This document shows positions 45,385 to 63,670 of a DNA stretch of 64,000 bases, in pieces. This stretch comes from an uncultured virus (IMG/VR IMGVR_UViG_641228477_000003). Its lineage: Duplodnaviria; Heunggongvirae; Uroviricota; Caudoviricetes. The DNA lies in IMG/VR virus record IMGVR_UViG_641228477_000003, positions 1 to 64,000 of that record; one strand, written 5' to 3'. The position numbers and the translations under genes were made by a program. Position 1 is the first letter of the stretch, and each line of letters opens with the position of its first letter. The notes beneath the pieces are model-generated. The model searched no databases. It was not told the DNA's origin and saw nothing but the letters and a program-made list of their open reading frames with translations.

Positions 45385-45398
45385 ATGATTCCCTCCTA

Positions 45399-45683: not shown

Positions 45684-45703
45684 TTGACCGATCTCTTCTT
45701 CGT

Positions 45704-46108: not shown

Positions 46109-46217
46109 AAATATCCCTCCTTGTCAAGTTTGACAAACACACGAAAGTATGCTTGTACATACATAAGGGCATGAAGGCATAAAAAAAGAGACTAGAGCCG
46201 AAGCCCTAGCCTATTGT

Positions 46218-46784: not shown

Positions 46785-46796
46785 ATGTAATTCCTC

Positions 46797-47168: not shown

Positions 47169-47169
47169 C

Positions 47170-47580
47170 TTAACCACCCATTCCTCTCCGAACTGCGTCA
47201 GCAATCCAACGATTATATTTCGGTAGTTCCATCTTCAGAGGTCTTTCGAGATATTTGCGACCGACAGCGTATCCCATGTAAGAACCGCTTTGTTTCGGCG
47301 TATATGACCATTCATGCATCGCAACAGCGTAATCAAAACCGTTACGTCCTCGGATTGAGAACGACACATCCGCCGTTACACCAGTCGCAGATACCTTTAA
47401 CTTCTTCGTATGGGACTTTCGTAGTGAACCTTTATCTAGTGGCGCTAGATTCGAACTGATTCGGATTAAATCATCCGCACAATCATTCAGACCTTTTTCA
47501 GCACCCTCAAGCGCACCTTGCTCGATTCGTTGCATTGCGCTAATGAAACTCGACATATCGATAGTAAGTCCGTCACTCAT
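47170..47580 (-). CDS. HK97 gp10-like neck protein
   Basis: APLDKGSLRKS, YAVAMHE, KYLERP. Confidence 0.8.
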   Translation of the reverse strand: MSDGLTIDMSSFISAMQRIEQGALEGAEKGLNDCADDLIRISSNLAPLDKGSLRKSHTKKLKVSATGVTADVSFSIRGRNGFDYAVAMHEWSYTPKQSGSYMGYAVGRKYLERPLKMELPKYNRWIADAVRRGMGG

Positions 47581-47909
47581 ACGTACACCCACGTAAGCAA
47601 CGGTTTACCTGTAAAATCCCTCTTAATCGTTATATTTCTTGGTTTACCTTTGTGAACCGTGCCAGCTTCGTTAACGTATTCCAGTTCGTCCTCATATCCG
47701 ATATCAGCGAGTTTGTCCAGTACTAGTTTTAAGTCAACGACAACGGTAGCGCCTTGAGTTTGACTTTGTCTGTCAGTTGTGGTATGAGAACCTTCTTCAG
47801 CACGACATTTCAATTCGGTGATTTCAATCTCTTCAGGTTTCCCCCAAATATTTAATTCACCTGTCTCTCGATAACGCTTAACGGTTTGTCTTAATGGAAT
47901 CATCGCCAT
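47577..47909 (-). CDS. Head closure/stopper protein
   Basis: Position and size. Confidence 0.7.
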   Translation of the reverse strand: MAMIPLRQTVKRYRETGELNIWGKPEEIEITELKCRAEEGSHTTTDRQSQTQGATVVVDLKLVLDKLADIGYEDELEYVNEAGTVHKGKPRNITIKRDFTGKPLLTWVYV

Positions 47910-47910
47910 G

Positions 47911-48312
47911 CTATGTCAACCACCCTATCTTTCTCCCACTCGTTTGTAGATTGTCGTTTGCTTCGTCAATTAGCTTCGCTACACTGTCGGGGATTAGTTC
48001 GTCAGGGGATTGACCAATAGCACTCGATACGTTGTTCTCTTTGAATGTGAAAGAACCAACACCTGTTACACTGAAGGACGCAATCCCTTGTTGTTGTAAC
48101 CTGTTCGTATCGTTATACACGATTGCTAGATACGCACTGAATTCGTAGATTGCTTCAGGTGGGATAACTGTGTCTTTGCCATAATGGTTTCGCAATGTCC
48201 TACCAGCAACGTTCATCAGCCGTACTTTCTTCGCATCATCCGATTCGTGCCAGTCTTCGTTGGTAATCACGTACAAATCGATATGTTCCGTAGCGTTTAA
48301 GATTCTCTCCAT
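47911..48312 (-). CDS. Head-tail adaptor
   Basis: QGIASFSV; follows capsid gene. Confidence 0.75.
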   Translation of the reverse strand: MERILNATEHIDLYVITNEDWHESDDAKKVRLMNVAGRTLRNHYGKDTVIPPEAIYEFSAYLAIVYNDTNRLQQQGIASFSVTGVGSFTFKENNVSSAIGQSPDELIPDSVAKLIDEANDNLQTSGRKIGWLT

Positions 48313-48374
48313 GAATCACCGCCCTCCTTATACGAAAAAGCGACTAGAGCCGAAGCCCTAGCCGTTCATTCCGA

Positions 48375-49550
48375 TTATTTTGCTGTTGCTGTTGCTTTGC
48401 GAGCCGAAGCCTTTAGTGTTTCAGGCTCAGTTGGTGGCACTGTTGGTTTAGCAGTACCGACGCCAGTGATGCGAGCGTGTGCTTGTTCTTGTAAGAACTC
48501 CATAGTGTACTCACCTACAAGCATTCCTTTCATGTAGTCACCTTTCTTACCCAAGAACTCATGAGAGAATTCACGTGTAGTAAGTGGGCGGATGCTGATA
48601 CGGTTCGAATCGACGATTAAGATTTCGTCAGAACGAAGGTTGTTGTTAAGAACGATCTCAGCAGCCCCGAAGTCAGACATGTAGTGGTCAACGACTTGTC
48701 CACGTCCGTTATCTAAACGGTCTAAGCGGATTTGCGCATTACCGAATTGAGAGATAGCAACCTTCTGTGTACCACCTACGATGATTTTGAAGTTACCGCC
48801 AGAGTTCATACCGCCTTTCTCGAAGATTGAACGGAATGCGTTGATTAACATGTCATCATTTACTGACTCGCCTTCAGCTTTGATAACGTTCGTTTCGATG
48901 AATGAACGAATACCACGCATCATACGCTTGCTACCAGCTTCGTAACGAATACCGTTGATAACCGCTTTTTCTAACGCTAACGCTAGTTCTAGCTGTTTCT
49001 TTTGCTTCTCTTTCTCGTACTCGTTGTTTACGCCGTATTGAGCGACAGCCATCGCAGTACCAGTAAGTTCCACAGACTCATCGAAGATTTGCGTGATATT
49101 AGATACACGCTTACGTGGTTTGTAGCGAGAGTCACGAGCGTCTGCGCCTTCAGAACCTTCGACGAACATTACTTCGATAACGTCGCCTTCCGCAATTGCT
49201 TCGGCAGTTGTGTCCGCATATCCACGAGCAACCGTTAATTTATTACCTGCTACAGAAACAACAAGGATTAACTCGTCGCCAGCACGAACAACTTGTAATT
49301 TACGGAATGCTTCTGAATCAGCCACTTCGATTTCTGTCGCAGTAGCAGTTGCCTCTTTCGTTGCTGTAGACTCTTGAGCGAACATTTCATCTTCGAACCA
49401 AATATGCTCTACCGCCGTAACGGCTTGTCCGAATCCCACAAGAGATAACATCGGTGTTTGTAATGGATTCAATAATAGAAACTCATCTACTACGGATTCC
49501 TTCTTTCCTACTAAATCCTCGTTATAAACCTTCTCAGTAACTACTGTCAT
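48375..49550 (-). CDS. Major capsid protein (DUF5309/SU10-like)
   Basis: TPMLS, HIWFED, NITQIF, RMMRGI, GEYTME; terminator after. Confidence 0.9.
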   Translation of the reverse strand: MTVVTEKVYNEDLVGKKESVVDEFLLLNPLQTPMLSLVGFGQAVTAVEHIWFEDEMFAQESTATKEATATATEIEVADSEAFRKLQVVRAGDELILVVSVAGNKLTVARGYADTTAEAIAEGDVIEVMFVEGSEGADARDSRYKPRKRVSNITQIFDESVELTGTAMAVAQYGVNNEYEKEKQKKQLELALALEKAVINGIRYEAGSKRMMRGIRSFIETNVIKAEGESVNDDMLINAFRSIFEKGGMNSGGNFKIIVGGTQKVAISQFGNAQIRLDRLDNGRGQVVDHYMSDFGAAEIVLNNNLRSDEILIVDSNRISIRPLTTREFSHEFLGKKGDYMKGMLVGEYTMEFLQEQAHARITGVGTAKPTVPPTEPETLKASARKATATAK

Positions 49551-49631
49551 GTATGTTTCCCTCCATTATTGTAATAAGAAAAGACGCCCAAATTGAGCGC
49601 CTTGACTTTTAGCGTATTTATGTTAAGTGGA

Positions 49632-50303
49632 TTACTTCCCTAATTTGTGTTTCAGGTTAACGTAAGCGATCTTATCTTCCATACGTTGAGTACGGCGATA
49701 CTTGTCAGCTGATTCCTGTAACAACTGTTCGTCAGATTTCTCCGACTTCGGATTAGCGTGATTAGACGCTCCACCGATTTCACGTTGTTGAACTTCCTTT
49801 TCTTTAACTAAGAACGGTCGCTCTTTAACGAGTTTAGTGACGATTTCTTTGATGTCTTCGACCTTAGTTGCGTCAGTCACCTTTGCAAGTGTTTTCGCAT
49901 CTTCTAGGAACTCCGTCGGGATGTTCACTGTCAGCGCTACTTCGGCAAACTTGTCGTTAACCTCTTTCGCCTTTTGTGCTTGTTTCATCGACTCGACTTC
50001 GGCTTGCAACGTTGTTAAAGCGTCGTCCTTCGTCTTAATCGTTTCGTTAGCACGTTCCAGTTCGTCCATCTTTGCAAGTCGTGCTTCGTCTGCAATACGT
50101 TCAGCTTCTTCAGCCTTCGTCTTGAAATCGTCGAAACCTTCGTACTTACGATGTACTTGCTGTTTGGATTTTGCGATAACTGCATCAAATTCAGCTTGCG
50201 TCATACTTACTGTCTTTTCAGCGTCAATCACTTCGTCCACTTTCGTTTCTGTAACTACTTCTCCACCATCAGGCGTTTGGGTTTCTTTGATTTCTTCTGC
50301 CAT
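49632..50303 (-). CDS. Capsid scaffolding protein
   Basis: TQAEFD, acidic coiled coil, RPFL; precedes capsid gene. Confidence 0.85.
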   Translation of the reverse strand: MAEEIKETQTPDGGEVVTETKVDEVIDAEKTVSMTQAEFDAVIAKSKQQVHRKYEGFDDFKTKAEEAERIADEARLAKMDELERANETIKTKDDALTTLQAEVESMKQAQKAKEVNDKFAEVALTVNIPTEFLEDAKTLAKVTDATKVEDIKEIVTKLVKERPFLVKEKEVQQREIGGASNHANPKSEKSDEQLLQESADKYRRTQRMEDKIAYVNLKHKLGK

Positions 50304-50457
50304 TGTTTCCTCCCACCGTTTAAAGACCGTCGTCATTTAGTTTCCGACTTGTTGCGATTCGCCAGTCGTCAGCGTAGTGTGTTCCGAAAAGGTTGTATTC
50401 CTCTTCGTACTATATCGGTGGCTAATGCCCTTTTATTTGCATACAAATGTAAACTTT

Positions 50458-51411
50458 TTAAGATTTTCTTTCGTTTTCTACATTTGCAGGGTTTCGCCCA
50501 CCTGCTTCTAGTGCTTTGTCGCCAGTCTTCTGTTGCTTATCTGCTAGAGATCGCTCCCAGTTACTTAATAAACTAGCATCTCGCAATGGGATGATATGGT
50601 GCTTACAATTCGGGTGGAATATCTGACCTGACATTTTCAACTGGTCTATAGTCGGATAATTACCTTCGGCTTCGCTCGTCAGCTTCACGATTCGTCCTTG
50701 ATGATATCTACAAGCGTCTTTCGTATTTGCGTTGAAGGAAATCGTTGCGTAATACGCCCCACGTCCGATTGCTTCATTCGAACAGGCTTCACTATGTAGT
50801 TGCGTCATCTTCGTGCGAGCCAGCATTTCCGTATAATGCTCGACAGTCCATTTTCGATTTCCTCTATCTACGATTGCGACATCCACAGAATCACGTAGCT
50901 TTTTCTGCAATTCCTCGATGCGCTTCGCCATTTCCTTGCTGGTAATCTGTACTTGGTTATTCATTGCGATGTTCTCTGCGATAACCGTTGAGGACACTTT
51001 GCGAATCTCTTCTACGAAATGCTTGTTCATATTCTGCGTGATTGCTAGTACATCTTCGAAAGTGTCTTCGACCGCCTTCGTAAGTAGTAGTGCGTTTGCT
51101 TGATTGAAGCGAACGATCTTGAGCGCTTCCTCACGACTTTCTACATATTCAAGTGCGACGAGCGAATCAGCGATTCCGTCCTTCGTAGCAATTACGATAT
51201 TCTCCTTCACCCATTCGACTGCTTCCTTATCTACTTTCAGTAGTTCGGCTTGAAGGTTTCGGATGAGCGCATAAGTAGATGCTTGCGTCAGTAATCGAAC
51301 ATCTACCGCATCCAATTCTTTCTGCAATCGAAGCAATGCTTTCTTATATATAGAAACTAACCGCCCCACGTTTTTCTCGTAGGACGGCATTTTGAAATCA
51401 TTTCTACTCAT
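50458..51411 (-). CDS. Minor capsid/head morphogenesis protein
   Basis: DRGNRKW...Y..M..RT, C...QG, HPNCKH. Confidence 0.85.
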   Translation of the reverse strand: MSRNDFKMPSYEKNVGRLVSIYKKALLRLQKELDAVDVRLLTQASTYALIRNLQAELLKVDKEAVEWVKENIVIATKDGIADSLVALEYVESREEALKIVRFNQANALLLTKAVEDTFEDVLAITQNMNKHFVEEIRKVSSTVIAENIAMNNQVQITSKEMAKRIEELQKKLRDSVDVAIVDRGNRKWTVEHYTEMLARTKMTQLHSEACSNEAIGRGAYYATISFNANTKDACRYHQGRIVKLTSEAEGNYPTIDQLKMSGQIFHPNCKHHIIPLRDASLLSNWERSLADKQQKTGDKALEAGGRNPANVENERKS

Positions 51412-53029
51412 CTACTTCTTCAGTTTCCTTTTCTTCGGGCTTCTCTTCTTCGACGTCCACCTGCGCTAGTGGGTCGAACTTATTGAAGTCTTCAGGTTGT
51501 GCCAGCTTATCAGCTTCGCCATCCTTCTCCATAGCTTCGATGATTGCTTCCGCTTGTGCATCGTCAAGACCATCCATATTCTTGATTGCTGTACGAACAT
51601 CAATCGTAGGACGACCGCCTGTACGAATCTGCATAACTTCAGCGAGTTCCTTCTCGTTAGCTGGTAAACCATCACGCCATCTAATCTTTGGATATACCGC
51701 AGTATAGTGAGTGAATCCGATTTCGTTTGCGGTATTCTCAAGTAATTGAGAGATGTACAGCGAATCACGGAATGCTCGGTCAATATTCGTTCTAATTCGT
51801 TTTACTTTCGACAAGATCGGCATGAACCTCGCCTTGATTGCTGAACCGTCGGTATGTGACGTACCAGTTCCGCCAGCGTTTCCGATTGTAGTTCCGAATA
51901 ACCACTGTGGCGTTTCAGATACTTGGAAGACTAAGTTAATCAGCGTTTCTAACTGCTTGAATGCATCCGCTAACTTACCATCCCACGTCATGTATGATGG
52001 TGCGACTTCTTCCTTACGCATAGGGATGTATCGACCGCCCCATGTCATTTCGACTTGTTGTAAATCGGGTCCATATGCCGTAGGGTCGCTATGTTTCAAT
52101 AGAATGTAATCGATTTGCGTTAGACGATCATTAATGGCATAGATAAGCGATTCAATCTTTTCAGTAGACGAAATCCCATTCCAGTGCGTGTCCGTTGCTT
52201 TGTACGGAATGTGGCGAATTAGATTCATAGGAACGCCAGTCTCTACTACATCGTGGTCACGGTCTGTCGCTACTTCCTCTAAGATTTCGTATTGCTTTTG
52301 TGTAACTTTATATTCCGTGATGATTTGTGGTAATGGATTCAACTTGAATCTACGATATTGAATGAATCCTGCGAGGTGGCGTTCGACATTTAGATACGGA
52401 TGTTCTTCGCCATTCAATTCCATAACCCATTCGATTTGAGCGATATTGACCGCTTTGAACTTCTTCTTGCTTCCTCGTGCCAATTCAGGGAATACAGTCG
52501 AAGGGTCTTGTGATTCGATAATCGCTTCCATCTCGACACCTTTCGGAACGAACGGTAATTCGCTGAAGTCCTCACGGTAAGAGAAATACGTTTTGATGAA
52601 TGCATCGCCACGGATACCAGCACCTACGACCAGTTCTTGTCCAAGCGCTGACATATCGTTTTCCTCTACTATAGAAGAAAGACGTAATTGCTCAGTGGAA
52701 TCCGCATTCATTCCACTTTCAAACGATGGGTCTTCGCTGAACATTAAATCCGCTGGTTTATGAATGATAATATCTGTTAGGTTAACTGCGAGATACAACG
52801 ATTGAAGACGTTTGACGTGCGGTGTATCCTTCAATAGTTCCTGCGCTCGCTTCGGTAAGTCTCTGAAGTTACCTTCGTATAATTTGCGACCACGTTCGTA
52901 TTTTGCTAGACGTTCTAAATCGTCAGTTGGTGGGAACAGCTTCCCTTTTTCGAATAACGTATCGGATGGTCTGTACTCGTATTCGATACTGTCGTCGTGC
53001 TTTTCTCTTCTTAGTAGTTTGTTGAACAT
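51404..53029 (-). CDS. Portal protein (SPP1-like)
   Basis: 541 aa, position, IRWRDGLP, acidic tail. Confidence 0.88.
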   Translation of the reverse strand: MFNKLLRREKHDDSIEYEYRPSDTLFEKGKLFPPTDDLERLAKYERGRKLYEGNFRDLPKRAQELLKDTPHVKRLQSLYLAVNLTDIIIHKPADLMFSEDPSFESGMNADSTEQLRLSSIVEENDMSALGQELVVGAGIRGDAFIKTYFSYREDFSELPFVPKGVEMEAIIESQDPSTVFPELARGSKKKFKAVNIAQIEWVMELNGEEHPYLNVERHLAGFIQYRRFKLNPLPQIITEYKVTQKQYEILEEVATDRDHDVVETGVPMNLIRHIPYKATDTHWNGISSTEKIESLIYAINDRLTQIDYILLKHSDPTAYGPDLQQVEMTWGGRYIPMRKEEVAPSYMTWDGKLADAFKQLETLINLVFQVSETPQWLFGTTIGNAGGTGTSHTDGSAIKARFMPILSKVKRIRTNIDRAFRDSLYISQLLENTANEIGFTHYTAVYPKIRWRDGLPANEKELAEVMQIRTGGRPTIDVRTAIKNMDGLDDAQAEAIIEAMEKDGEADKLAQPEDFNKFDPLAQVDVEEEKPEEKETEEVDE

Positions 53030-53077
53030 CGAATCCCTCCTAGTATATAAAAGAAAAAGAGCGCTGAATGAGCGCCC

Positions 53078-53629
53078 TTAGATTACCTCACCTTTGTAGT
53101 AAACCTTCTCTAGTTCGTTGATGCGAACGTCGAAGTTATATGCTTCTAGTGCTTCACGAGATTCTAGGAATGCGTGACAAGACTCAGTTAGCATGATGTT
53201 CTTCGGTAAGTCCGTTTTGTCATCGAATAAGATAACAGGACGTTGAATTACGCTTGCGGCCCCTAGTTCCCAGTTCGTACCACTGTCAGTCGAGTGAACT
53301 GCGACAACGATATCACATGTTAGGATTTCTTTAACGTCGTTATTGTACGTGGCTTTTCGCCATTCAACCGAACCGAATTCGAATTGTGGATTTTGATGCT
53401 CACGTGGTGAGAATACTTGCAACCCTTTCGCTCGTAACGTCTTTTCGACGAATTCTACTCGTTCGATTTCTTCGTCATTGAAGAATGGGGATGCGAGGTA
53501 GACTTTCATTGGCTTTTTCGGTAATGGAAGTACTGTGCGAGTTACATGAGTCGTAACGATCTTGTCTGCTTCGATACTTCCTACATTGATTGCCTTTGCT
53601 TTGATAGTTCCTGTTGTGATTTTACCCAT
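53078..53629 (-). CDS. Nucleoside 2-deoxyribosyltransferase-family protein
   Basis: VYLASPFF, SP, D...CDIVVA, DSGTNWELG, NIML. Confidence 0.9.
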   Translation of the reverse strand: MGKITTGTIKAKAINVGSIEADKIVTTHVTRTVLPLPKKPMKVYLASPFFNDEEIERVEFVEKTLRAKGLQVFSPREHQNPQFEFGSVEWRKATYNNDVKEILTCDIVVAVHSTDSGTNWELGAASVIQRPVILFDDKTDLPKNIMLTESCHAFLESREALEAYNFDVRINELEKVYYKGEVI

Positions 53630-53709
53630 TGGTAAATACCTCCTAGTGTTTGTTTAATTGACCTATCCGTCCTACACTTTCATAAGGGCAGGACAGAATT
53701 TGAAAAGGT

Positions 53710-55470
53710 CTATAACCACAAAGGCTTGTCTCTCATTACTGCACGAGGTCGAGCGACATATTCGACGGACATTTGCAACGCATCGACTGAATCGACGTAA
53801 TCCCCGAATGGATATGCGTCCATCTGCTCTAGCAACGTCTTGTGGTGACGGTTGAATAGAAGAGTTTTGTTGACGCAATACGGTTCGAGAGATTCGATAC
53901 GCTGTTCCTTCGAAGACTTCTGTGCTTTGACGTCAATTACTTTCGTAGAATATAAGTGATGACGTGGTAGTTCTTCTTGTAGCTGACGATAGAATTCATG
54001 CTGTGCGTTGATAGTCTCAACGATTAGTAGATTCGGTCGGTAAGAAGAAACACGTTGAATAATACCTTGCATGAATTTATGTGGTGGCTCTTTGGTAGCG
54101 TATTCGTCCAGCACAAAAATACGCCCAGTTGCTTCATGGCGTCCAGTTGTAACTAACGCATTGTAGCAGGAGCGAGCGCTTTTACCCATTGCTATATCCC
54201 ATGCCGAACTGATAGACATATCGGCAAGGTCATATCTCTCGCCTTCATATACGCAGTAGCGTTCGTCGGTAAGGGGGTCGTGCTGAATCGTGTAATATCC
54301 GAACTGATCGGTGAAGAAGTACTTCTCATCTTCCGAGAATGCTCGGTTTCGATACTCGGAATTGAAGGTCTTCGTTCCCATATTCGCTTTACGCTCCATT
54401 AACGCCTTATAAGTCCAGCGCCATTCCCATGCGGTTTCTACGCCGTCCATCATAGCAACTTCGTTTTTATCGTAGAATGCTTCGTGTTCTTCACCATCTC
54501 CATGCAGATATAAATCGGTATATTCTTCCCACATTTGCGGATGATTCGGTTCACTTACAATCGCATCATAGAAACAGTGTTTGAAGTCACGGCGATTCAG
54601 AACGTGCGCCAATAGCCCAGTGGACGATACCATCGTGCCGACTAGGATTTGATTTGTGGTTTTAGAGCCGATTGGCATTACTACGGCGTTAAACCAGTTA
54701 ATTAACTTTTCACGTGCTTCTTTCGTTCCTTCGTTATTCGCTGATGATGGGTCATCGGTAATAACTGTAGTCGGACGTAATGCGCCATGACGCTTACCAC
54801 GTAATTGCTTCCCTGACGATGATGCTTCGACAAGCTGGTTCTCTCTCGTAATGAAAGAACTCTCGTTATCTTTCTCATTCGCCATTGGATTATCGTATAA
54901 GAGACATCCGAAGTCTTCTATTAACTTGCGATTATACTTTAATTGCTTATTACACCAGCTGACTAACTTCTTCGAAAGGTCGTCCGTTTCCGATATAATC
55001 AGAATGTATCTGTGCGATAATTGGCGGAATAATATGCCTTTTAGCGCATATGCATTCGAGAATATACCTGATTTCGAGTGACCACGAGGGGCTGCGATGC
55101 CTAAGTTCACGCCCTTACCTGCATCTACTTCGTCACATAATCCGAAGAATTCTTTATGTATTCCTGCCATTTCTTCAAGTGGTTGATGCTGTTCGCCGTC
55201 GTCTTGATTCTGAATGATGTTGTCTTCGTTATCAGGATTATGACCATCACTAAGATATTCCATCGTAAAGTATGCGTTATCCACTTCCGCACGATGTATG
55301 CGCTCTAAGCGAATTAATTCTTCCTTACTATTTAGTAATATTTCAATATGGTAGTCCGACGCATCACCTTGCTTATGTAGTTGCATAAGCGTGGCAAGGC
55401 GCTCTTTTACGAGCGCAATGCGTTCGGCACGTTCTTCACGATTGATAAACCGTTCGCCATTCCATGCCAT
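53710..55470 (-). CDS. terL: Terminase large subunit
   Basis: APRGHSKS, LRG.R, ITDD, VGT, AWDIAMG, KEQRI, YVDSVDA. Confidence 0.93.
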   Translation of the reverse strand: MAWNGERFINREERAERIALVKERLATLMQLHKQGDASDYHIEILLNSKEELIRLERIHRAEVDNAYFTMEYLSDGHNPDNEDNIIQNQDDGEQHQPLEEMAGIHKEFFGLCDEVDAGKGVNLGIAAPRGHSKSGIFSNAYALKGILFRQLSHRYILIISETDDLSKKLVSWCNKQLKYNRKLIEDFGCLLYDNPMANEKDNESSFITRENQLVEASSSGKQLRGKRHGALRPTTVITDDPSSANNEGTKEAREKLINWFNAVVMPIGSKTTNQILVGTMVSSTGLLAHVLNRRDFKHCFYDAIVSEPNHPQMWEEYTDLYLHGDGEEHEAFYDKNEVAMMDGVETAWEWRWTYKALMERKANMGTKTFNSEYRNRAFSEDEKYFFTDQFGYYTIQHDPLTDERYCVYEGERYDLADMSISSAWDIAMGKSARSCYNALVTTGRHEATGRIFVLDEYATKEPPHKFMQGIIQRVSSYRPNLLIVETINAQHEFYRQLQEELPRHHLYSTKVIDVKAQKSSKEQRIESLEPYCVNKTLLFNRHHKTLLEQMDAYPFGDYVDSVDALQMSVEYVARPRAVMRDKPLWL

Positions 55471-55481
55471 GCTTATTCCTC

Positions 55482-55904
55482 CTATTTCTTTAATAGTGCG
55501 TTGATTTCTGCGATTTCTTTCTCAAGATCGCTATTTGACTTCACGCCGTCAGCCGTATTGTCTTCGATGACTTTCTTATCAGTAAGCAAGCCGTGTCTAC
55601 GTAAGAACAGGTCGATACCTTTGATTGACGGTTGCGAACCGCTAATCGTACGCAGTAATTGACGATATACAAAATCACGCTTTTCCGATAAAAACTCGTC
55701 AGCGATCATATTCTTGTAATCGATGAATGATTTGTTTTGCGTTCTCCATTTGTATAGGCACATGCGAGTGACGCCTAATTCTTGCGCAATCTCTTCCTGT
55801 GTCTTACGTTCTCCCTCGATGTTGAGTTCGTTCTCTACCAGTAATAGAGCAGCTTCACGTTGTTTTAAGTTCAAGCGAGATTCTAATTCCTTCTTACTAG
55901 CCAT
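55482..55904 (-). CDS. terS: HTH protein, probable terminase small subunit
   Basis: TQEEIAQELGVTRMCLYKWR; directly upstream of terL. Confidence 0.75.
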   Translation of the reverse strand: MASKKELESRLNLKQREAALLLVENELNIEGERKTQEEIAQELGVTRMCLYKWRTQNKSFIDYKNMIADEFLSEKRDFVYRQLLRTISGSQPSIKGIDLFLRRHGLLTDKKVIEDNTADGVKSNSDLEKEIAEINALLKK

Positions 55905-56016
55905 GCGTATCTCTCCTTTCGGTATAATAAAAAAGTGTTGCGATTCCGTACGTTCTCATTTATACTGAATGTAACACAAACAGAAAAGAGATACATATGG
56001 AAGGTGGCAACACAAA

Positions 56017-56565
56017 ATGAATGAAGTTCAGCCAATTAGACTGAAGAAAGATATAAATAAAATGAAACGTGCCTTGCACGGTCGTGATAGATTGATGTTT
56101 GTTTTGGGAATTAATTTAGGTCTTCGTATTTCCGATTTATTACAATTGAAGGTTTCTGATTTTTATGGTGAGAATAACCGCTTCCTAAAACATGCGGTAG
56201 TTACCGAAGAGAAGACGGATAAGAATCGTAAGATGGCGATATCTGACGCAGTCAAGCGTGAAATCAAAGAAGCAGGATTCACGCAATATAGCGAAGAATA
56301 TCTATTTCCATCACGCAAAGGCGATAAGCCTATCGGACGTGTGCAAGCATACCGCATCCTAAATGCAGGGGCGGAACGTGCAGGTATTACCGAAATCGGG
56401 ACGCATACATTGCGTAAGACATTCGGATATCACGCATATAAGGCAGGTTCATCGATTCAAACGATTCAAAAACTACTGAATCATTCTAGCGAGAAGGATA
56501 CGATTAAATACATCGGTATCAATCAAGATAATCTCGACGAAGTACATTTGACACTTTCGTTGTAA
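56017..56565 (+). CDS. Short tyrosine recombinase (catalytic domain only)
   Basis: GLRISD, EKT, HTLRK, LNH, KYIG; promoter TTGCGA-N17-TATACT 55938-55966. Confidence 0.92.
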   Translation: MNEVQPIRLKKDINKMKRALHGRDRLMFVLGINLGLRISDLLQLKVSDFYGENNRFLKHAVVTEEKTDKNRKMAISDAVKREIKEAGFTQYSEEYLFPSRKGDKPIGRVQAYRILNAGAERAGITEIGTHTLRKTFGYHAYKAGSSIQTIQKLLNHSSEKDTIKYIGINQDNLDEVHLTLSL

Positions 56566-56567
56566 TA

Positions 56568-56604
56568 GAAAAAGCGCTACCCGACGTGGGTGGCGCTCTT
56601 TTTG
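56568..56604. terminator. Bidirectional terminator
   Basis: AAAAAGCGCTACCC-GACGT-GGGTGGCGCTCTTTTT. Confidence 0.8.
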
Positions 56605-56719
56605 CGTTTATTTCTCTTCATTCTATATACACGCCTGTATGCGATAGTTTTGTATACATTGTGTAAACTATTTAACGCAGATATAGATTCACGGCTTATC
56701 TGTCGGGGCATATACTGAC

Positions 56720-56792
56720 CCATGAGCGGTCTACCTATCATGGCTCAACCACTCACTAACTAGAACCAAAGAATAACTATAGCCAATATAAA
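56720..56792 (+). repeat. Copy 2 of the inverted repeat
   Basis: CCATGAGCGGTCTACCTATCATGGCTCAACCACTCACTAACTAGAACCA... Confidence 0.95.
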
Positions 56793-57059
56793 TATATTAG
56801 AGTCACTACGTTCCTCTAAGAAGATTTAACGCAGTAATATACATAATAAAGAGAGGGCGAGCCTTTAAAGATACGCTTAAACGTTATATAAAGACTGCGT
56901 AAGTATTTAAAAGAAGAAAGAAGAACGTTCTTAGTCGCCAATTTTATGCGCTGAATGTTTGCTGAAAAGTGCGCCACTCATTTTAAGGCGTCTAGAAGGC
57001 GTCAGAAGACGTTTTAATCGATAGAGATATGATAGGTCTTCGAAAGGGGCTTAGTAAGC

Positions 57060-58300
57060 GTGATTACGCTACTTGCGTAATATAATCGGTAGATATGCGC
57101 TAGGATTAATTTAAGAGGGATATCGATAGGACTTCATGTGGATTTCGGTAGGCTTCGTACAAGATCGGTAGGACTGCGTAGGATTACATGTGGATTTCGT
57201 ATAGGACTTCGTGTAGGAATAACACCCTGAGTTGAAAATTGCGTGTACTTTTCGAGGGGGTTTGCTTCAGGGGGGTTGATGGGGTGGCTTGGGGGGTGGT
57301 GGCATTTTGCGATTTGGGTGGACGGCTTGTTGAATATCGAATTCACTCGAATGAATAACGAATGAAACAGAAGGACTTTGTGTTACTTTCGACAATCTCT
57401 TTTAAACGTTGATTTAACAATCTTCTTCGCACTTTCAACGAACATTCAATTCGAATAAAGTTTTATGCATTAAAAGAAACGTTGAGTTAATAACATTCTT
57501 CTTTCGCATTCGATTCGATTAAGATGAATAAGAAGTTGCATAAAGAAAGACACACGATTCTTTTAAACCCCTTGAGTTTCGAGTCGCTTCTCCACAGAAG
57601 TTCTCAGCTGATTAAATCAATCGAAGTTCTTCACGCATTCTTCTCGCACACACAACGATACTCACACTACTATTACTATGCGTCATGCTACCGTATACCC
57701 ACGTGGCTGTATCGTATATCAGTACGCCATACTACCTATATGTTAACGTGGTACAGTCTTGCGCTGGTATCTCGAATACATTTAGCGAAACCATTTCCGA
57801 TTACATTTCCGTTGTAATCTACAGTAAACTATAACCGCTATTACTATGGCTACTATATACGTATGGTATATGCCCTATGTTATAACAGGGCATTGCGATA
57901 TGGTACTCGGCTATTGGTCATATGTACTGACGGCTTGGTATATATAGTACCGCCCTGTTATATATACAGTGTATGCGTTGGTAATATAGCGGTCATATAC
58001 AGCCCTATGATCGGTAGTATATGCGCCTTGGTATTCGTACATTTATGCGTACATTTATATAGTTTACATTGCGTCCTATTAACGCTACATTTATCGACCT
58101 ATTTATCGTATCATTTAGCTACATTTAACATATGTATATACTAATGCATAGCGTAATGATATATAAGAAATAGGAAGTATCTATCGTACATTTAGCGCCT
58201 ATTTAACGCACATTTATCGGACATTTAATCGCCTGTATATAGCGACATATTCGGTCTTCCTTAGACGACTAAAGGCGTATATATGTGTATAGTATAGCCG
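57060..58300. other. Repeat-rich non-coding region; candidate packaging (cos/pac)/genome-end region
   Basis: Upstream of terS; G-tract cluster, TAGGA(C)TT, AAACGTTGA and ACATTTA repeats; operator 57064-57080. Confidence 0.5.
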
Positions 58301-58448
58301 TATAATTTAAGTTATTTTTGGATAATATAGCAACATAAAGACACGCAAAAACACATCTGAAAAATAATTGTTGACATGTTTTACGTATCAATGTTATACT
58401 AAGTATGTGCTTGAGAGAGTACAATACATCCGAAAGGAGGTATCGAAT

Positions 58449-58604
58449 ATGCAAGAAGTGTTAACATTCCTCTTCGACAACTTACATAGTCCGATGTCAT
58501 TCGTTATCATCTTCATGGTTTGCACTGAATTTGGTTTCAGCGTAAAACGTGTAAATGGTAAGATTGACTTCGAGATAACAGTAAACTATCGATTCAGGAA
58601 GTAA
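58449..58604 (+). CDS. 51-aa small protein (moron)
   Basis: TTGACA-N18-TATACT promoter (58371-58400), GAAAGGAGG RBS. Confidence 0.7.
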   Translation: MQEVLTFLFDNLHSPMSFVIIFMVCTEFGFSVKRVNGKIDFEITVNYRFRK

Positions 58605-58670
58605 ATAAGGTCATAGGGCGTGTTACAGCACGTCCTACCCTTTAACAAATAGTATAACACTTCGACGCAT

Positions 58671-58850
58671 ATGAATACAATTATGAGCGATAAAAATAAA
58701 GTTAGATACCTATTGATGACGGCGCTGGTGTTTTTACTGATAACGAGGATTATCGGCAATCCCATCGCAGGAGGACTCGCAGTTGTATTTGCTATAGCTG
58801 TAGCCTGTGCAGTCTTCACGGAACGAATCGGAAGAAAGCGAAGACAGTAG
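58671..58850 (+). CDS. 59-aa two-TM protein with basic tail (not in ORF track)
   Basis: MNTIMSDKNKVRYLLMTALVFLLITRIIGNPIAGGLAVVFAIAVACAVFTERIGRKRRQ; no SD; terminator follows. Confidence 0.55.
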   Translation: MNTIMSDKNKVRYLLMTALVFLLITRIIGNPIAGGLAVVFAIAVACAVFTERIGRKRRQ

Positions 58851-58914
58851 TCTCATCGTACTCTTTCGAGCATAATAAAAAGCGGTACACGTTAATTCGT
58901 GTCCGCTTCTTTTT

Positions 58915-59163
58915 TTATTTCGGCATCTTCTTCATAATCAGGTAGTTTCGTACGATGAGTCCGTGGTCTTTATGAATCTCCTGCAACAACGCACCAGCAG
59001 TAAATACCCTATCGTGCCAATACGAATAATAGCCGTCCGCCCTCATAAGAAATACACGACCGTTTATCGGATTCAGGCGTACGTCATACGTATGTGTAGC
59101 ACGTCCGAACATCCATTGAATGGCGACTCTATCGCCTACCTCTAGTGTAATTGGTCTAGCCAT
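58915..59163 (-). CDS. Paralog family A, member 4
   Basis: VGDRVAIQW...Y...GRVFL. Confidence 0.7.
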   Translation of the reverse strand: MARPITLEVGDRVAIQWMFGRATHTYDVRLNPINGRVFLMRADGYYSYWHDRVFTAGALLQEIHKDHGLIVRNYLIMKKMPK

Positions 59164-59432
59164 TATATATCGCTTCCTTTCGGATAGATTACATATGATT
59201 CGACAATAGGCATGTCGCCCATCATATCGCCTTTAATCATGTCCAGCAGGTCAATCGTATTCATGAGAACAGGACGACGATACGCATATCTATTTGTACC
59301 CTTCCTACGCAAGAATACTCGACCATCTTCGCCTTGTACTACGAAGTATGTGTGTTTCTCGAATGTATGCCATGTGATGTCGATAGTATCATCGATGTAC
59401 AGGCGCTCAATCGTTTCGCCTAGATTACCCAT
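59163..59432 (-). CDS. Paralog family A, member 3
   Basis: IDDTIDITW...Y...GRVFL. Confidence 0.7.
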   Translation of the reverse strand: MGNLGETIERLYIDDTIDITWHTFEKHTYFVVQGEDGRVFLRRKGTNRYAYRRPVLMNTIDLLDMIKGDMMGDMPIVESYVIYPKGSDI

Positions 59433-59524
59433 GATTACGACCGCCCTTCACATATTTATAGATATCTCTCGCAACCCGACAGACGAGAACCGTAACAATA
59501 ACAACGCCAATATTAACCGCCATT

Positions 59525-59716
59525 CTATTCATCCTCCCCATACAAATACTTATTCGCATTGTGGTAAGAGTCCGTATCATAAGCGTGACAATTGTCCATC
59601 GTACTCATACAGTCCTGAAGTAAGTCCGTTAATATATCAACCTTCGCAGTCAGTTCGTTATTGTCTTCGACTAGCTTTTCGATTCGTTCTTCGTATGCAT
59701 GTGTAATGCTACCCAT
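59525..59716 (-). CDS. Small coiled-coil protein
   Basis: TAATG coupling. Confidence 0.55.
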   Translation of the reverse strand: MGSITHAYEERIEKLVEDNNELTAKVDILTDLLQDCMSTMDNCHAYDTDSYHNANKYLYGEDE

Positions 59717-60024
59717 TATTTCGCCACCGCCTTTCGTCGTATCACCATTTCCCATTCGGCTTGTGCCAGTACTACGTAATGCTCTATCGTAGAGTGGTCA
59801 GCGATTGCCTTCAATAATCCGTGCAATGTTCTCCCCTTACTCTTAAAAGCGTAATTCGAACCGTTGACGCAAGCTAAGAAAACATCATCAACACGTGCGC
59901 CCATTTCAGCACTTTCCTGTACGAGATACAATTCGTAATCCTTTCGTCCAGTCCACAAGATCGCTACGAAGTCACCGACTCTCAGGTTCGTTGGCTTCGC
60001 TAATCCTTCGACAGTTGCCATCAT
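59716..60024 (-). CDS. Paralog family A, member 2
   Basis: VGDFVAILW...Y...VFL. Confidence 0.7.
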   Translation of the reverse strand: MMATVEGLAKPTNLRVGDFVAILWTGRKDYELYLVQESAEMGARVDDVFLACVNGSNYAFKSKGRTLHGLLKAIADHSTIEHYVVLAQAEWEMVIRRKAVAK

Positions 60025-60323
60025 TATTGACCGCCACCCTTTCGCTCCATTTTCAGCTTCCAAAACTCTTTCGAATACAACGTGTATGACTCTAGTAAAT
60101 CAGCTTCGTGACGCAATGCGTTAATCAAATCGACAATACGAGCGTCGGATTGTTGCAAGAATGAATATCCTACGCCATCAATACCCATTAAACATAAGCG
60201 ATTACCCACTGGCGTCTTTATAATCAAGTACACTTTAGGCGTCTTTTCGCCTTTCCACTGGATTTCTACAACGTCACCAAGACCGTATTCTCTCGTTAAT
60301 TCCTTTGAAATTTCTATTTCCAT
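60024..60323 (-). CDS. Paralog family A, member 1
   Basis: LGDVVEIQW...Y...RLCL. Confidence 0.7.
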   Translation of the reverse strand: MEIEISKELTREYGLGDVVEIQWKGEKTPKVYLIIKTPVGNRLCLMGIDGVGYSFLQQSDARIVDLINALRHEADLLESYTLYSKEFWKLKMERKGGGQ

Positions 60324-60390
60324 ATTTATCGCTCCCTTATCGCTATTTACACATACATAAGGACGCAGGACACGACGAAAAGAGCGAATA

Positions 60391-61725
60391 CTAAATGTAT
60401 CCGCCCTCGATAATCTTATCCATCAACGCACTAATGACATTCACCGTCACCGCATTGCCAGCCGTCTTATATAATTGTGCGTTTGATATGCCGTTTTCGT
60501 GTAGCAGCTCATGTATCTCATCTCTAAATCCCTGTAGCCTGAAACACTCTTTCGGCGTGATTTTCCGCACTTTCCATTCATGCGTAAGTGTAACGAGATA
60601 GTTCGTAGTCTCTAGCGTATGACAAACGCCATGACCGACTCGACCACGCCTTGTCTTACTCGAAGGGAATTTGATATTTATCGAATCACCTACACCAGCG
60701 ACCGCATATCCCTTCTTCGTAGCTTCGAGAACAGCAACCTTCGGCTCTTGATTTCCACCTTGCATCGTAGTCAGCGCAGGAGAAACACCATTCGGTGAAT
60801 ACACACGTTTCAGGATATCGTGTCCTTTTACGTCAATTCGTCCGATACAGTCTGTTTCTAACTTTCCGACCATATCAGGCAGTCCATTTGCATCGAGCAT
60901 CTTCAATATCTCGGCTGATGCGTCCTCTTTGATGTAGAATCTCTTATCTACACTTTCTTCGAGTATATCAATCAGCGATACATTGACATCTTCTTGCGCA
61001 GGGAAGTCGAAGTTAAACGACTGTACGCCTAAATTCAATAGATTTCGCTTGCAGTTTGCAACCACATTCTTTCCTTTGATGCGCCATTCTTCGGACTGTA
61101 CTAAATCCTTTCGTACACATACGACGAATATACGCTCCCTATTTTGGGCTACATCGAAGTACTTCGAATTGATGCTTTCGAAATCAATCACGTAGCCGAT
61201 CTTGTTCATTGTTTCCGCAATCACTCGCATCGTTTCACCTTTTGCTGAAGAAATGAGTCCTTTTACATTCTCCATTAATACTACCTTTGGTTGCGCATAT
61301 TCAGCTACACGTGCCACCTCGTAGAATAGCATTCCACGTATATCCTTCGGCTTCGCTTCGTCACAACATTCGGTGCATCTTACGTTACGCATCTTGTATC
61401 GTTCGAAGTCAATTACAAACTCATGCTTACATCGTGGATTGATGCATTTGTACATCATGCCATCTCTACCGCCAGCTACTGAAAACGTAGGGCAGGGAAA
61501 GCCAGCAGTCAGGATATCGTGTCTCGGTACGTCCATTGATCGCACTTTCGTGATATCACCCACCGTCTTCTTTCCGTAAATCAATTCGTACGCTGTGTTT
61601 GCGTATTTATCGACTTCTGACGCCATAACGCAAATACCGCCTTTTCCATTCAGTGCTTGTTCGAAGCCACCGATTCCTGAAAAAAGCGATACATATTTAA
61701 ACCATATATTACCCTCACTTCCCAT
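60391..61725 (-). CDS. C5-cytosine DNA methyltransferase, probably bispecific
   Basis: FSGIGG, GFPC, ENVKG, QNRER, two TRD-like modules, YKTAGNAV. Confidence 0.95.
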   Translation of the reverse strand: MGSEGNIWFKYVSLFSGIGGFEQALNGKGGICVMASEVDKYANTAYELIYGKKTVGDITKVRSMDVPRHDILTAGFPCPTFSVAGGRDGMMYKCINPRCKHEFVIDFERYKMRNVRCTECCDEAKPKDIRGMLFYEVARVAEYAQPKVVLMENVKGLISSAKGETMRVIAETMNKIGYVIDFESINSKYFDVAQNRERIFVVCVRKDLVQSEEWRIKGKNVVANCKRNLLNLGVQSFNFDFPAQEDVNVSLIDILEESVDKRFYIKEDASAEILKMLDANGLPDMVGKLETDCIGRIDVKGHDILKRVYSPNGVSPALTTMQGGNQEPKVAVLEATKKGYAVAGVGDSINIKFPSSKTRRGRVGHGVCHTLETTNYLVTLTHEWKVRKITPKECFRLQGFRDEIHELLHENGISNAQLYKTAGNAVTVNVISALMDKIIEGGYI

Positions 61726-61790
61726 ACATACCACCCTTTCACGTTTGGTACGTACATAAGGGCGTGAAGACATAAAAAAAGAGCGACCGC

Positions 61791-62504
61791 TTATGCGACC
61801 GCCTTTTCGTTGATATGTCGTTTATATTCCTGAATCACATTCTCGTTTGCACGTGGCTTTCGAATTGTCTTGCCAGTGTTACAGAATGGGTTCAGTGCTT
61901 TAATCAGATACGTTTCGTAGATGTCTCGATGGAACACGTTACTTACATACATGTAGTCCACTCGATGCACAAGATCGTTACGCATCAATTCCTTTAACCG
62001 ATGATTTGAACTGATACCAATTATGTGCGTATTCGTTCGGTGGTATAGGCTACCTGTGATTCCTACATACAATGGATTGCTGAATGCATCATAGAATACA
62101 TATACGCCAGCAACCATCTTCAGGTCGTCAATCAACGATAAATCACGTTTGACCGAATCTACATACACCGTCTTACGTATTGTAGGTGGTTTAATCGAAA
62201 TCAGACCATCATCATACGCATTCTCGGATTGCTTCGCTTTGAATTCGACCGCCTTCGCAAACTCTTCAGCGATCAGTTTCTTTCGTTCGCCGTCCGTGAC
62301 CATATATTTGCCGTTCTCGTTCAACTTACGTTTGATTCTCGTAATCGTTTCGCTGGATGTTGCGTTCACACAATCATCGACAGACTTGATGTTATCGAAA
62401 TGACGCCAGTACGTAGTGACCAGTAATCTGTCGTTTATGCGTGTCGCAGGATAATTCTGTAGAATGTATTCTACCTTCGCTTTCTTCGTTCGTTTTCGTG
62501 CCAT
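61791..62504 (-). CDS. GIY-YIG nuclease-domain protein
   Basis: GVYVFYD...LYVGIT...R...H...E...P..N. Confidence 0.85.
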   Translation of the reverse strand: MARKRTKKAKVEYILQNYPATRINDRLLVTTYWRHFDNIKSVDDCVNATSSETITRIKRKLNENGKYMVTDGERKKLIAEEFAKAVEFKAKQSENAYDDGLISIKPPTIRKTVYVDSVKRDLSLIDDLKMVAGVYVFYDAFSNPLYVGITGSLYHRTNTHIIGISSNHRLKELMRNDLVHRVDYMYVSNVFHRDIYETYLIKALNPFCNTGKTIRKPRANENVIQEYKRHINEKAVA

Positions 62505-62520
62505 TTCTCACACTCTCCCC

Positions 62521-62874
62521 TTAGAATGATATCTTCGTAGAACCACTTAAATGACCAGCATTTATGATTCCGCCTTGTATTTTCATGTTCGGGCCGCCTA
62601 ACCACGCAGTCCCTTTTACTGGATTCAGGAATTCCACTGAAACAACTGTCGCATCCCTAATTTTCGGATTGTATATCACCGCAAGTACAGGATGTGATTC
62701 CGACGGTTGTGGTACATTGATGATTTTTAGAATATCTACTACATCGCCACGCACATAATTGATAATATCTACATAGTCGTCGAACACATCGCCGTCATGT
62801 ACTTCAGCAAGTCCAAATGATTCGTTTATTATTGCGCTATCCCCAACATTGAATTTATGATCGCTCATCATCAT
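62521..62874 (-). CDS. Hypothetical SH3-like protein
   Basis: KFNVGD start; RBS. Confidence 0.6.
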   Translation of the reverse strand: MMMSDHKFNVGDSAIINESFGLAEVHDGDVFDDYVDIINYVRGDVVDILKIINVPQPSESHPVLAVIYNPKIRDATVVSVEFLNPVKGTAWLGGPNMKIQGGIINAGHLSGSTKISF

Positions 62875-62912
62875 TTCCCCTTTACGTTGTATTTCGTACA
62901 GAAAAAGACGCC

Positions 62913-63296
62913 CTAGAGCGCCTTTATGCTGGTAACATTCGGATACATCGACATGACAGCCGAACGCATACCAAACGTCATTACTTCGTATTTCTTTCCT
63001 TCCTTTAACTTAGCCTGAAAGTCAGCACTATCGTACTTTCCAGCGAAGAAGCTGTCGGTGTTCTCAAGAACGTGAGTCTCGCCGTTCTCATCCTCGATTA
63101 CAACGAAGAACTTATCGACACTATCAATACGCTTCGTGTATTTATCTACGACAGTACCGACGATAGGCTCACGTGATTCCGAATTGTTCACGCTGGTGCG
63201 TACAGCCGAGCATGATATGGTAATAGCGAGAATGAACGCAATAATACCAGTGATGATTAGACCTCTACGGACATTAGTTCGTGATTTGCGGTTCAT
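62913..63296 (-). CDS. Membrane-anchored/lipoprotein, OB-fold-like
   Basis: TM + ITISC; VVDK...LENTDS...YPNV. Confidence 0.65.
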   Translation of the reverse strand: MNRKSRTNVRRGLIITGIIAFILAITISCSAVRTSVNNSESREPIVGTVVDKYTKRIDSVDKFFVVIEDENGETHVLENTDSFFAGKYDSADFQAKLKEGKKYEVMTFGMRSAVMSMYPNVTSIKAL

Positions 63297-63670
63297 TATT
63301 TCACCGCCATTTCTTCGAAGTATCCACGTACGTTGCGTAGGAATTGCATTGCTTCCTCCGCCTTGGCTTCGTTAAGGATGATGATCGCGTAATCACCAGC
63401 GCCATAGATTTCAACACGAATACTCTTGCTATCGCTTTGTCGTCTGATTTTCATGTAATAATTGTGCTTGTCTACCAAGCATTTAATATCCCCTGATGCT
63501 GTACCCTTCTCTAAGTTGGATTTTAGTACGCCCAGTAACACTGTAGGATTTACGAAGGTAGTACGATATGTGTCGTTAGCCTTAGCCATTAACGCAACAT
63601 TTCCATTTGGCATCATCTTCATTTCCAGCGTGTCTTTTTCTCTATATGAGCAATTAATTGTCTTCTTCAT
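63296..63670 (-). CDS. Paralog family B, member 2
   Basis: Ends EMAVK. Confidence 0.65.
   Translation of the reverse strand: MKKTINCSYREKDTLEMKMMPNGNVALMAKANDTYRTTFVNPTVLLGVLKSNLEKGTASGDIKCLVDKHNYYMKIRRQSDSKSIRVEIYGAGDYAIIILNEAKAEEAMQFLRNVRGYFEEMAVK

Follow-up and report, generated by a model that had tools for sequence, protein, structure and literature searches.

The DNA analysed here, referred to below as the window, is the 64,000-nucleotide stretch at positions 1 to 64,000 of IMG/VR virus record IMGVR_UViG_641228477_000003, and our subject is an orphan C5 cytosine DNA methyltransferase (methylase) encoded near its end, together with the restriction targets that the same genome has lost or kept. 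In a protein search of a plasmid collection, the window proteins matched plasmid pBWB403 of Bacillus mycoides KBAB4 (NC_010182.1) at 100%; the window takes up the first 64,000 of the 64,977 bp of this record, and the word counts given below are exact and cover both the window and the whole record. Circular and 65 kb long, pBWB403 is a plasmid-prophage of the siphovirus type from the Bacillus cereus group; it carries genes for terminase, portal, major head, and tape measure proteins, an endolysin, a family-A DNA polymerase, a primase, a helicase, and a ParM-like segregation protein, and 80 of its 92 crudely called open reading frames (ORFs) lie on the minus strand. We propose that pBWB403 would evade restriction in two ways: through the loss of nearly all copies of many targets and through the action of this two-module methylase.

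pBWB403 has been grouped with pBwiPL1-3 and B. thuringiensis plasmid p2 (Bt p2) as putative plasmid prophages of ∼70% nucleotide identity (PMC8026635). The complete records of pl62, pBwiPL1-3, and Bt p2 served as comparison plasmids, and all three align to pBWB403 over about half its length with ∼71% identity. No C5 methylase was found in any of six related genomes examined. A near-identity search of phages with the window gave no match, and a scan of IMG/VR returned no close relative of pBWB403, the best match being 42% identical.

The best phage matches of the methylase (Table 1) are the enzymes of phi3T (M13488) and SPBc2 (mtbP), with 44% identity over 94% of the length, which bears out the kinship with multispecific Bacillus phage methylases that an earlier reading of the sequence (the original prediction) had proposed. 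The invariant C5 methyltransferase motif columns (catalytic Pro-Cys, ENV, and QxRxR) are common to the pBWB403, phi3T, SPbeta, and SPR enzymes. The two tandem modules that had been predicted in the variable region were confirmed by alignment: each can be aligned with modules found independently in other enzymes, and there is a natural homologue, P0004, without module 1. Two further proteins, P0002 and P0003, represent the same methylase with 89% and 77% identity. As had been suspected, module 1 resembles the presumed GCNGC module of phi3T (24/37 identical residues, versus 12/37 for the first module of SPR), and it shares 27/37 residues with a module of Bacillus phage vB_BceS_LY1 (LY1; ON366410). 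The column alignment shows that the pBWB403 methylase lacks the module present in all three of the SPR, phi3T, and SPbeta enzymes.

The phi3T and SPbeta methylases act on GGCC and GCNGC, and the SPR methylase acts on GGCC, CCGG, and CCWGG, as known from the Trautner-laboratory literature. Because SPR, phi3T, and SPbeta all methylate GGCC, the module that they share would be the GGCC module, and the phi3T-specific one the GCNGC module. It has been reported that phi3TI protects against the GCNGC enzyme Cac824I (PMC4736252), and an H2-type orphan methylase is listed with the targets GGCC, GCNGC, and GDGCHC (PMC3459991, Table 1). From the homology and these specificities, we infer that the target of module 1 would be GCNGC.

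A first-order Markov model predicts 75 GGCC, 317 GATC, 102 CCGG, and 336 CGCG sites. CCGG is missing altogether and CGCG occurs five times in the window (six times in the whole plasmid), in line with what had been noticed at first, and exact counting showed avoidance to be broader than first seen. The other depleted words are CCWGG (0 observed, 33 expected), GGWCC (1, 45), GGATC (0, 99), CCCGC (0, 58), CCCGT (0, 74), CCAGA (2, 69), GAGGC (3, 68), AGCTC (5, 104), CTCGAG (0, 17), and GCNGC (27, ∼157). Known B. cereus systems match further avoided words, namely GCWGC, GGWCC, and ACGGC (PMC3459991). The shares of CpG contexts do not differ among pBWB403, pl62, pBwiPL1-3, and Bt p2.

Despite their ∼71% identity, the four plasmids have divergent word profiles. 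CCWGG occurs 100 times in pl62, twice in pBwiPL1-3, once in Bt p2, and not at all in pBWB403; the corresponding totals are 552, 604, 54, and 65 for GATC and 1, 57, 127, and 5 for AGCTC, and CCGG and CTCGAG are absent from all four alike. In pBWB403, CCCG is followed by A in 49 of 49 cases, with zero CCCGC, CCCGG, and CCCGT, and the relatives hold 66–85 of CCCGC and CCCGT. These CCCGA sites are not evenly spaced (coefficient of variation (CV) of the gaps, 0.86).

The surviving GGCC sites follow a strict rule. All nine are in GGCCGC or GCGGCC, exactly at the coordinates and in the context of the original prediction, with none elsewhere, and eight of the nine are in GGGCCGC. GGCCGC is present 9 times (9–13 expected) and GGGCCGC 8 times (1–3 expected), and the survivors are evenly spaced (CV 0.34, p ∼0.002). 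The same context holds 38 of 135 GGCC sites in pl62, 17 of 58 in pBwiPL1-3, and 1 of 9 in Bt p2; against the baseline of the GATC-rich relatives, the probability of 9/9 is ∼2e-5. Because Bt p2, which lacks a methylase, is depleted in GGCC as far as pBWB403 (nine sites each) and keeps the context at one of them, the strict GGCCGC context accompanies the methylase rather than the depletion.

We propose that module 1 would methylate the first C of GCNGC. In GGCCGC, the inner C of GGCC would then bear this methyl group on one of the strands, and no GGCC sites but these could be retained. Some of the other survivors could be accounted for by this overlap too: three of the five AGCTC sites are in GCAGCTC, where the methyl would lie inside AGCT on the other strand, and one of the six CGCG sites is in GGCCGCGG, which also overlaps a GCNGC (two others are in GATCGCG). 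An M.BatI assay has made use of the geometry: one and the same C is the first in GCCGC and the inner one in GGCC, and HaeIII is blocked when it is methylated; in the same work, hemimethylation was enough to block Fnu4HI (PMC8936443). M.BatI itself is a small, unrelated C5 enzyme that does not methylate GCCGC, and the overlap in pBWB403 is deduced from genome statistics rather than from a digest. Taken with the homology of module 1, the GCNGC overlap of the survivors suggests that the GCNGC module probably shields GGCC in pBWB403. Word statistics alone would then read out part of the specificity of a methylase, GCNGC for module 1.

A result that the original prediction did not foresee, as it implied no selection against GCNGC, is that GCNGC itself is depleted about sixfold in pBWB403. 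The three relatives hold 363, 341, and 410 copies, and the purge is confined to pBWB403 among the four plasmids. The BisI-family enzymes Bce95I and BceYI of B. cereus cut GCNGC only if it is methylated, even when it is hemimethylated (PMC4926085), and B. anthracis has been reported to restrict cytosine-methylated DNA (PMC8936443). If methylated GCNGC is a target of BisI-type enzymes in B. cereus strains, the phage would gain from having few such sites, and the purge may have arisen because enzymes of this type, presumed in the hosts of pBWB403, would cut its methylated GCNGC. Anti-restriction methylation would on this account carry a cost, the purge of the phage's own target, as expected if the methylation-dependent nucleases of the host group strike back.

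The surviving GATC sites are as strictly placed as those of GGCC. On exact counting, all 65 of them (earlier tallied at roughly 60) are GATCG or CGATC, with none in another context. The proportions in GATCG context are 355 of 552 in pl62, 397 of 604 in pBwiPL1-3, and 18 of 54 in Bt p2, and the probability of 65/65 against the baseline of the GATC-rich relatives is ∼1e-13. When the sites are oriented, there are 50 AGATCG (53 expected), 14 TGATCG (54 expected), 1 CGATCG (32–40 expected), and no GGATCG; GATCGA occurs once (66–82 expected), although TCGA (515 copies) and ATCGAT (45 versus 39–48 expected) are not avoided, and the latter count led us to reject avoidance of ClaI sites as the cause of the missing GATCGA. 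The base at position +3 is T in 48 of 66 oriented sites (29% in other ATCG contexts), a preference seen whatever the codon phase and orientation (19/26, 5/7, 10/13, and 10/13). The word RAGATCGBT is found 29 times when about 5 copies are expected. Remnants of Illumina adapters (AGATCGG...) were considered and discarded, as only some sites continue in this way and the reading frames are intact.

The original prediction held that the second module methylates the C of (A)TCG and that only sites under the cover of methylation by the phage itself would be retained. The latter idea is well supported for GGCC through GCNGC and is plausible for GATC; the TCG target is contradicted by the counts. CGATCG, which would be shielded on both strands under TCG, is nearly absent, GATCGA and TGATCG are depleted though both should survive, and LY1, whose homologous module is identical at 28/39 positions, holds 4 GATCG against 58 expected. 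Word statistics can thus also falsify a proposed specificity. Plain GATC as the target was likewise rejected, as pBWB403 and LY1, which both bear the module, both avoid GATC.

In place of TCG, we propose that the methyl would be on the C of GATC, on one strand, and that by elimination it would be placed by module 2, with a target that would be longer than TCG and asymmetric, close to AGATCG(B)T. A cytosine mark at the C of GATC fits because G is strictly required right after GATC. Sau3AI is inhibited by cytosine methylation, and DpnIII spares fully methylated GATC and partly cuts the hemimethylated form (PMC4471560). Module 2 contains a near-invariant block, is the last module in 12 of 12 aligned homologues from Firmicutes phages and prophages, and is identical at 23–34 of 39 positions to eight other enzymes. 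By tblastn it is present in 165 phage records, and Streptococcus accounts for 113 of these. A scan of genome contigs with the module 2 segment gave eight loci, which were left out of the comparison. The literature searched, including the M.BatI and Proxi-RIMS-seq2 studies, names no target for it, and a study of a group B streptococcal prophage Dcm found no motif; knowledge of its target would annotate many enzymes, as the module is in at least 165 phage records. We hold it possible, although slightly doubtful, that the phage methylase shields GATCG.

LY1 provides a second case of a methylase-bearing, GATC-depleted genome. Its methylase has 595 amino acids and four module-like segments, among them homologues of both pBWB403 modules. 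The LY1 genome holds 32 GATC sites (139 expected), all in CAGATC or GATCTG, so that context purity is 100% in both methylase-bearing depleted genomes; its four GATCG copies are all inside CAGATC, and CAGATCA occurs 27 times (5.8 expected). The LY1 homologue of module 2 goes with a different GATC context. The contexts are mixed in the depleted genomes without a methylase: Bt p2 has 18 of 54 sites in GATCG and ∼24 of 54 in AGATCA, and Bacillus phage PBC1 (NC_017976; 43 GATC, 121 expected) has 30 of 43 in GGATC, versus a family baseline near 50%. No C5 methylase was detected in PBC1 or Bt p2, and none of the 20 proteins scanned from depleted methylase-less relatives has a methylase domain. Because Bt p2 and PBC1 show bias and evenness without a methylase, part of the pattern needs no phage methylase, and four methylase-less relatives that have either kept or lost GATC and GGCC show no strict contexts. 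As a further observation, the annotated C5 methylase of Staphylococcus phage Golestan101-M (LC557520; 383 amino acids) ends before motifs IX–X in the alignment and may be truncated, and the 50 kb of this phage that were examined avoid GATC (15 versus 105), GGCC, CCGG, CGCG, and GCGC.

These comparisons bear on two other accounts of the GATC contexts. In one, GATC is shielded by something other than module 2, with another phage-encoded modification, such as that by the PAPS-reductase-like protein, and methylases of the usual hosts acting on the resident plasmid as candidates. The gene for this protein has no annotated counterpart in the three relatives, homologues of module 2 accompany different contexts, and Bt p2 and PBC1 are biased although they have no C5 methylase or recognizable methylase domain in the proteins scanned. 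However, purity is strict in no other genomes than the two with a methylase, the need for a G directly after GATC fits a cytosine mark at that C, and host methylases, which vary between strains, would not yield one fixed word. A lone PAPS-reductase-like protein is not known to have sequence-specific DNA activity, and we think a shield of this kind quite improbable.

In the other account GATC is not methylated at all; the selecting endonuclease or endonucleases cut some flanks poorly, and their dependence on two sites thins the rest. A preference for A on the 5′ side (33/33 oriented sites in LY1, 50/66 in pBWB403, and ∼40/54 in Bt p2, versus 45% in pl62) is what such an enzyme might leave, and evenness accompanies depletion with or without a methylase. 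The 3′ flank, however, differs sharply between pBWB403 (G) and LY1 (A), unlike the mark of one host enzyme, the DpnIII study saw no pattern in the flanks of cleaved GATC sites (PMC4471560), and a purity of 65/65 is hard to obtain from rate differences alone. We consider this explanation distinctly unlikely.

The GATC survivors of pBWB403 are also spaced evenly. The gaps have a CV of 0.55, versus 0.985 under random placement, a value reached by 0 of 10,000 simulations, and the largest gap is 2720 bp. Among 5288 words of 4–7 bases, a z score for evenness below −3 was obtained for four, all of them GATC or words nested around it, and GATC was the most evenly spaced of all the words tested. Evenness was found in four of four GATC-depleted B. 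cereus-group phages (CV 0.55 in pBWB403, 0.39 in LY1, 0.61 in PBC1, and 0.74 in Bt p2; p ≤ 0.009 throughout and 0.0003 for PBC1) and in none of four GATC-rich relatives (pl62, 1.16; pBwiPL1-3, 1.05; Wes44, 1.05; BCE1, 1.12). Wes44 and BCE1 are relatives of PBC1 with 176 and 185 randomly spaced GATC sites, and the gaps in LY1 range from 435 to 2402 bp. A search of the literature for evenly spaced GATC in phages gave nothing relevant among the papers listed, and as far as our searches show, even spacing of survivors and purge of the own target are features that the literature does not describe. It appears to be a general, apparently undescribed regularity that B. cereus-group phages losing GATC keep evenly spaced survivors.

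From these results, it is practically certain that neither chance nor a side effect of base composition and codon usage gave rise to the pattern. Coding sequence makes up 93% of the genome, and 25 of 28 coding-strand GATCG sites are in one codon phase, as a codon effect could produce. Yet the probabilities against the relatives' baselines are those given above (∼1e-13 and 2e-5), the flank consensus is present whatever the phase or orientation, the pattern is missing from relatives that have the same genes at the same GC content, and GATC tops the 5288 words in evenness; we regard this explanation as refuted.

The even spacing could instead have been left by selection on close pairs of sites. 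Sau3AI is a two-site enzyme that loops DNA (PMC1474071); because it needs two sites, selection mainly on close pairs is plausible. In the proposed sequence of events, a GATC-rich ancestor would have had its close pairs purged first by two-site enzymes of the Sau3AI family, and isolated, shielded sites would have persisted. This process was represented by a toy thinning model with an initial density of one site per 100 bp, in which the two nearest neighbours are located at each step and one of them is removed. The model gave a CV of 0.35 ± 0.04, and its largest gap averaged 2112 and 2672 bp for the two genomes, compared with the observed 2720 bp (pBWB403) and 2402 bp (LY1). GCNGC and GATC positions are independent of each other (the CV of their union is 0.76, versus 0.70 ± 0.04 when positions are shifted at random). 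The rule on spacing is therefore GATC-specific, and generic two-site restriction dependent on 5-methylcytosine was rejected as its cause on the same ground. Two-site thinning as the cause of the even GATC spacing is put forward tentatively, as a somewhat doubtful proposal in which the selecting enzymes are presumed; if it is right, even spacing would point to two-site restriction that selects on the spacing of sites, not only on their number.

Part of the ancestral distribution can be followed in the relatives. Of the 34 alignable survivors, 15 are GATC in pl62 and 14 of 34 in pBwiPL1-3, and of the relatives' aligned GATC sites pBWB403 has kept 15 of 298 (pl62) and 14 of 343 (pBwiPL1-3). At these shared sites the flanks lean to the consensus, with T at +3 in 17 of 27 comparisons in pBWB403 and 9 of 27 in the relatives (sites counted once per relative).

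Several observations weigh against the combination of site loss, shielding by the methylase, and thinning. AGATCGBT occurs 36 times (9.5 expected, and 12–14 copies in the relatives), and GGGCCGCA occurs 5 times (0.3–0.8 expected); both are in excess, beyond what passive survival alone would leave, and only 3–14% of the relatives' AGATCG sites have been kept. The orientation of the motif alternates beyond chance (43 runs, versus 32.6 ± 3.9), which no part of the explanation predicts. Because DNA looping does not end sharply at a set distance, the thinning model is no more than a toy, and thinning leaves the excess of long words, the flank drift at shared sites, and the alternation unexplained. 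A hemimethylated GATC is still partly cut by an enzyme of the Sau3AI family (PMC4471560). Simple shielding did not predict the depletion of GCNGC, so that the BisI-type argument must be added, and LY1, with the same module 1, has a normal GCNGC content (121 versus 102 expected). The LY1 contexts mean that module 2 is readily retargeted, or that another LY1 module acts there, or that module 2 is not the shield. Finally, Bt p2 and PBC1 are context-biased and evenly spaced without a methylase.

A different explanation is that RAGATCGBT, at about every 1 kb, and GGGCCGCA, at about every 7 kb, form a functional lattice under positive selection. On this view, a protein of the phage or the host would read the sites as self-marks, whether in strand discrimination, in nick-directed repair, in defence against a processive nuclease, or in another role. 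The methylase would be the writer of the mark or have nothing to do with it. The enrichment of the long words, the small largest gap, the T at +3 in every coding phase, and the drift of flanks to the consensus at ancestral sites all speak for such a lattice, as do the alternation of orientations, each of which is evenly spaced alone (CV 0.67 and 0.52), and the excess of CAGATCA in LY1 along with its CV of 0.39. On the other hand, the word differs among phages of the same host group (AGATCGBT, CAGATCA, GGATC, and AAAGATC), with only GATC in common, and GATC-rich relatives with the same replication and packaging genes show no lattice (CV 1.05–1.16). Thinning reproduces both the CV and the largest gap with no need for positive selection, no protein that reads the sites was identified, and the alternation is absent in LY1. 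We therefore think a lattice unlikely. Its more specific form, a functional GATC lattice in a phage-specific word (RAGATCGBT in pBWB403, CAGATCA in LY1, and GGATC elsewhere) that is marked on one strand by the phage's own C5 methylase, is quite unlikely; if true, it would mean a self-mark read at intervals of at most ∼2.5 kb by a two-site nuclease directed at GATC or by a factor of repair or replication, and the last methylase module would be a rapidly retargetable reader of GATC-containing words.

Returning to site loss, shielding by the two-module methylase, and GATC thinning, we give their combination, with methylation and selecting enzymes presumed, an even chance of being right as a whole. 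The Sau3AI/LlaKR2I/DpnIII family has properties that fit both the context rule and the thinning, as its members, according to the sources cited, recognize GATC, are blocked by 5-methylcytosine, cut hemimethylated sites partially, and loop two sites; its link to the hosts of pBWB403 is conjectural.

Loss of GATC in Staphylococcus phage K is a known case of site avoidance. pBWB403 is like other phages that avoid restriction sites in that many short targets are depleted and the sets vary among close relatives. It differs in that depletion is conditional on context, survivors are in one longer word and evenly spaced, and the own target is purged. In comparison with M.Phi3TI and M.SPBetaI (MtbP), the pBWB403 enzyme shares the family, the cysteine-rich insert, tandem modules between motifs VIII and IX, a homologous first module, a phage-borne gene, and the lack of a partner nuclease. 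It differs in that the GGCC module is replaced by one absent from phi3T, SPbeta, and SPR, and in that it resides in a B. cereus-group plasmid-prophage whose genome is poor in GGCC and even in GCNGC; reliance on methylation itself is attributed to the SPbeta-group phages.

Table 1. Positions of the methylase, its segments, neighbouring genes, and surviving sites in the window
Feature	Position	Strand	Remarks
Orphan C5 cytosine DNA methyltransferase	60391..61773	-	PF00145, E 1.1e-67; 460 amino acids from first ATG, 444 from 61725; annotated dcm in NC_010182.1
Variable-region module 1, residues 310-346	60736..60846	-	Counterpart of phi3T/SPbeta-specific module; putative target GCNGC
Variable-region module 2, residues 350-388	60610..60726	-	Widespread last module; occupies place of phi3T/SPR GGCC module
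Cysteine-rich insert after catalytic Pro-Cys motif	61339..61458	-	18/40 identical to phi3T, 1/40 to SPR; also in SPbeta
GIY-YIG nuclease-domain gene, directly upstream of methylase	61791..62504	-	PF01541
PAPS-reductase-like gene, between helicase and replication genes	24750..25778	-	PF01507, phrog_424
Surviving GGCC sites (n = 9)	4514, 8680, 14369, 23722, 32879, 41080, 44518, 53258, 62592 (span 4514..62595)		Each overlaps a GCNGC
Surviving GATC sites (n = 65)	1827..63383	both orientations	All GATCG/CGATC; oriented consensus R-A-GATC-G-B-T; mean spacing 962 bp

The methylase is a phage-borne orphan, in that the sole nuclease gene next to it, encoding the GIY-YIG protein, is conserved in the three methylase-less relatives. 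The two genes were considered as an Eco29kI-like restriction-modification pair, and this was rejected, as pl62, pBwiPL1-3, and Bt p2 all have the GIY-YIG gene without a C5 methylase. The PAPS-reductase-like gene is the only other candidate DNA-modification gene; its lack of a counterpart in the three relatives was judged by annotation only. Just downstream of the methylase, on the minus strand at 58915–60323, are four tandem small ORFs of 82–115 amino acids that by eye appear to be mutual paralogues, and a Pfam search of three of the four gave no match.

The family-A DNA polymerase is split over two minus-strand ORFs (16454–18238 and 13472–14551), with a 523-amino acid ORF of unknown family (14766–16337) between them; the relatives are similarly split, with other inserts. 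The GC content is ∼43.7% in pl62, pBwiPL1-3, Bt p2, and pBWB403 alike, and that of the host group is roughly 35%, well below that of the plasmids. Nucleoside-salvage genes at 3494–9916 and 53078–53629 encode a NupC-like transporter, a deoxynucleoside kinase, a thymidine kinase, and an ATPase resembling deoxynucleoside monophosphate kinases, and the relatives have a nucleoside 2-deoxyribosyltransferase gene between the portal and terminase genes.

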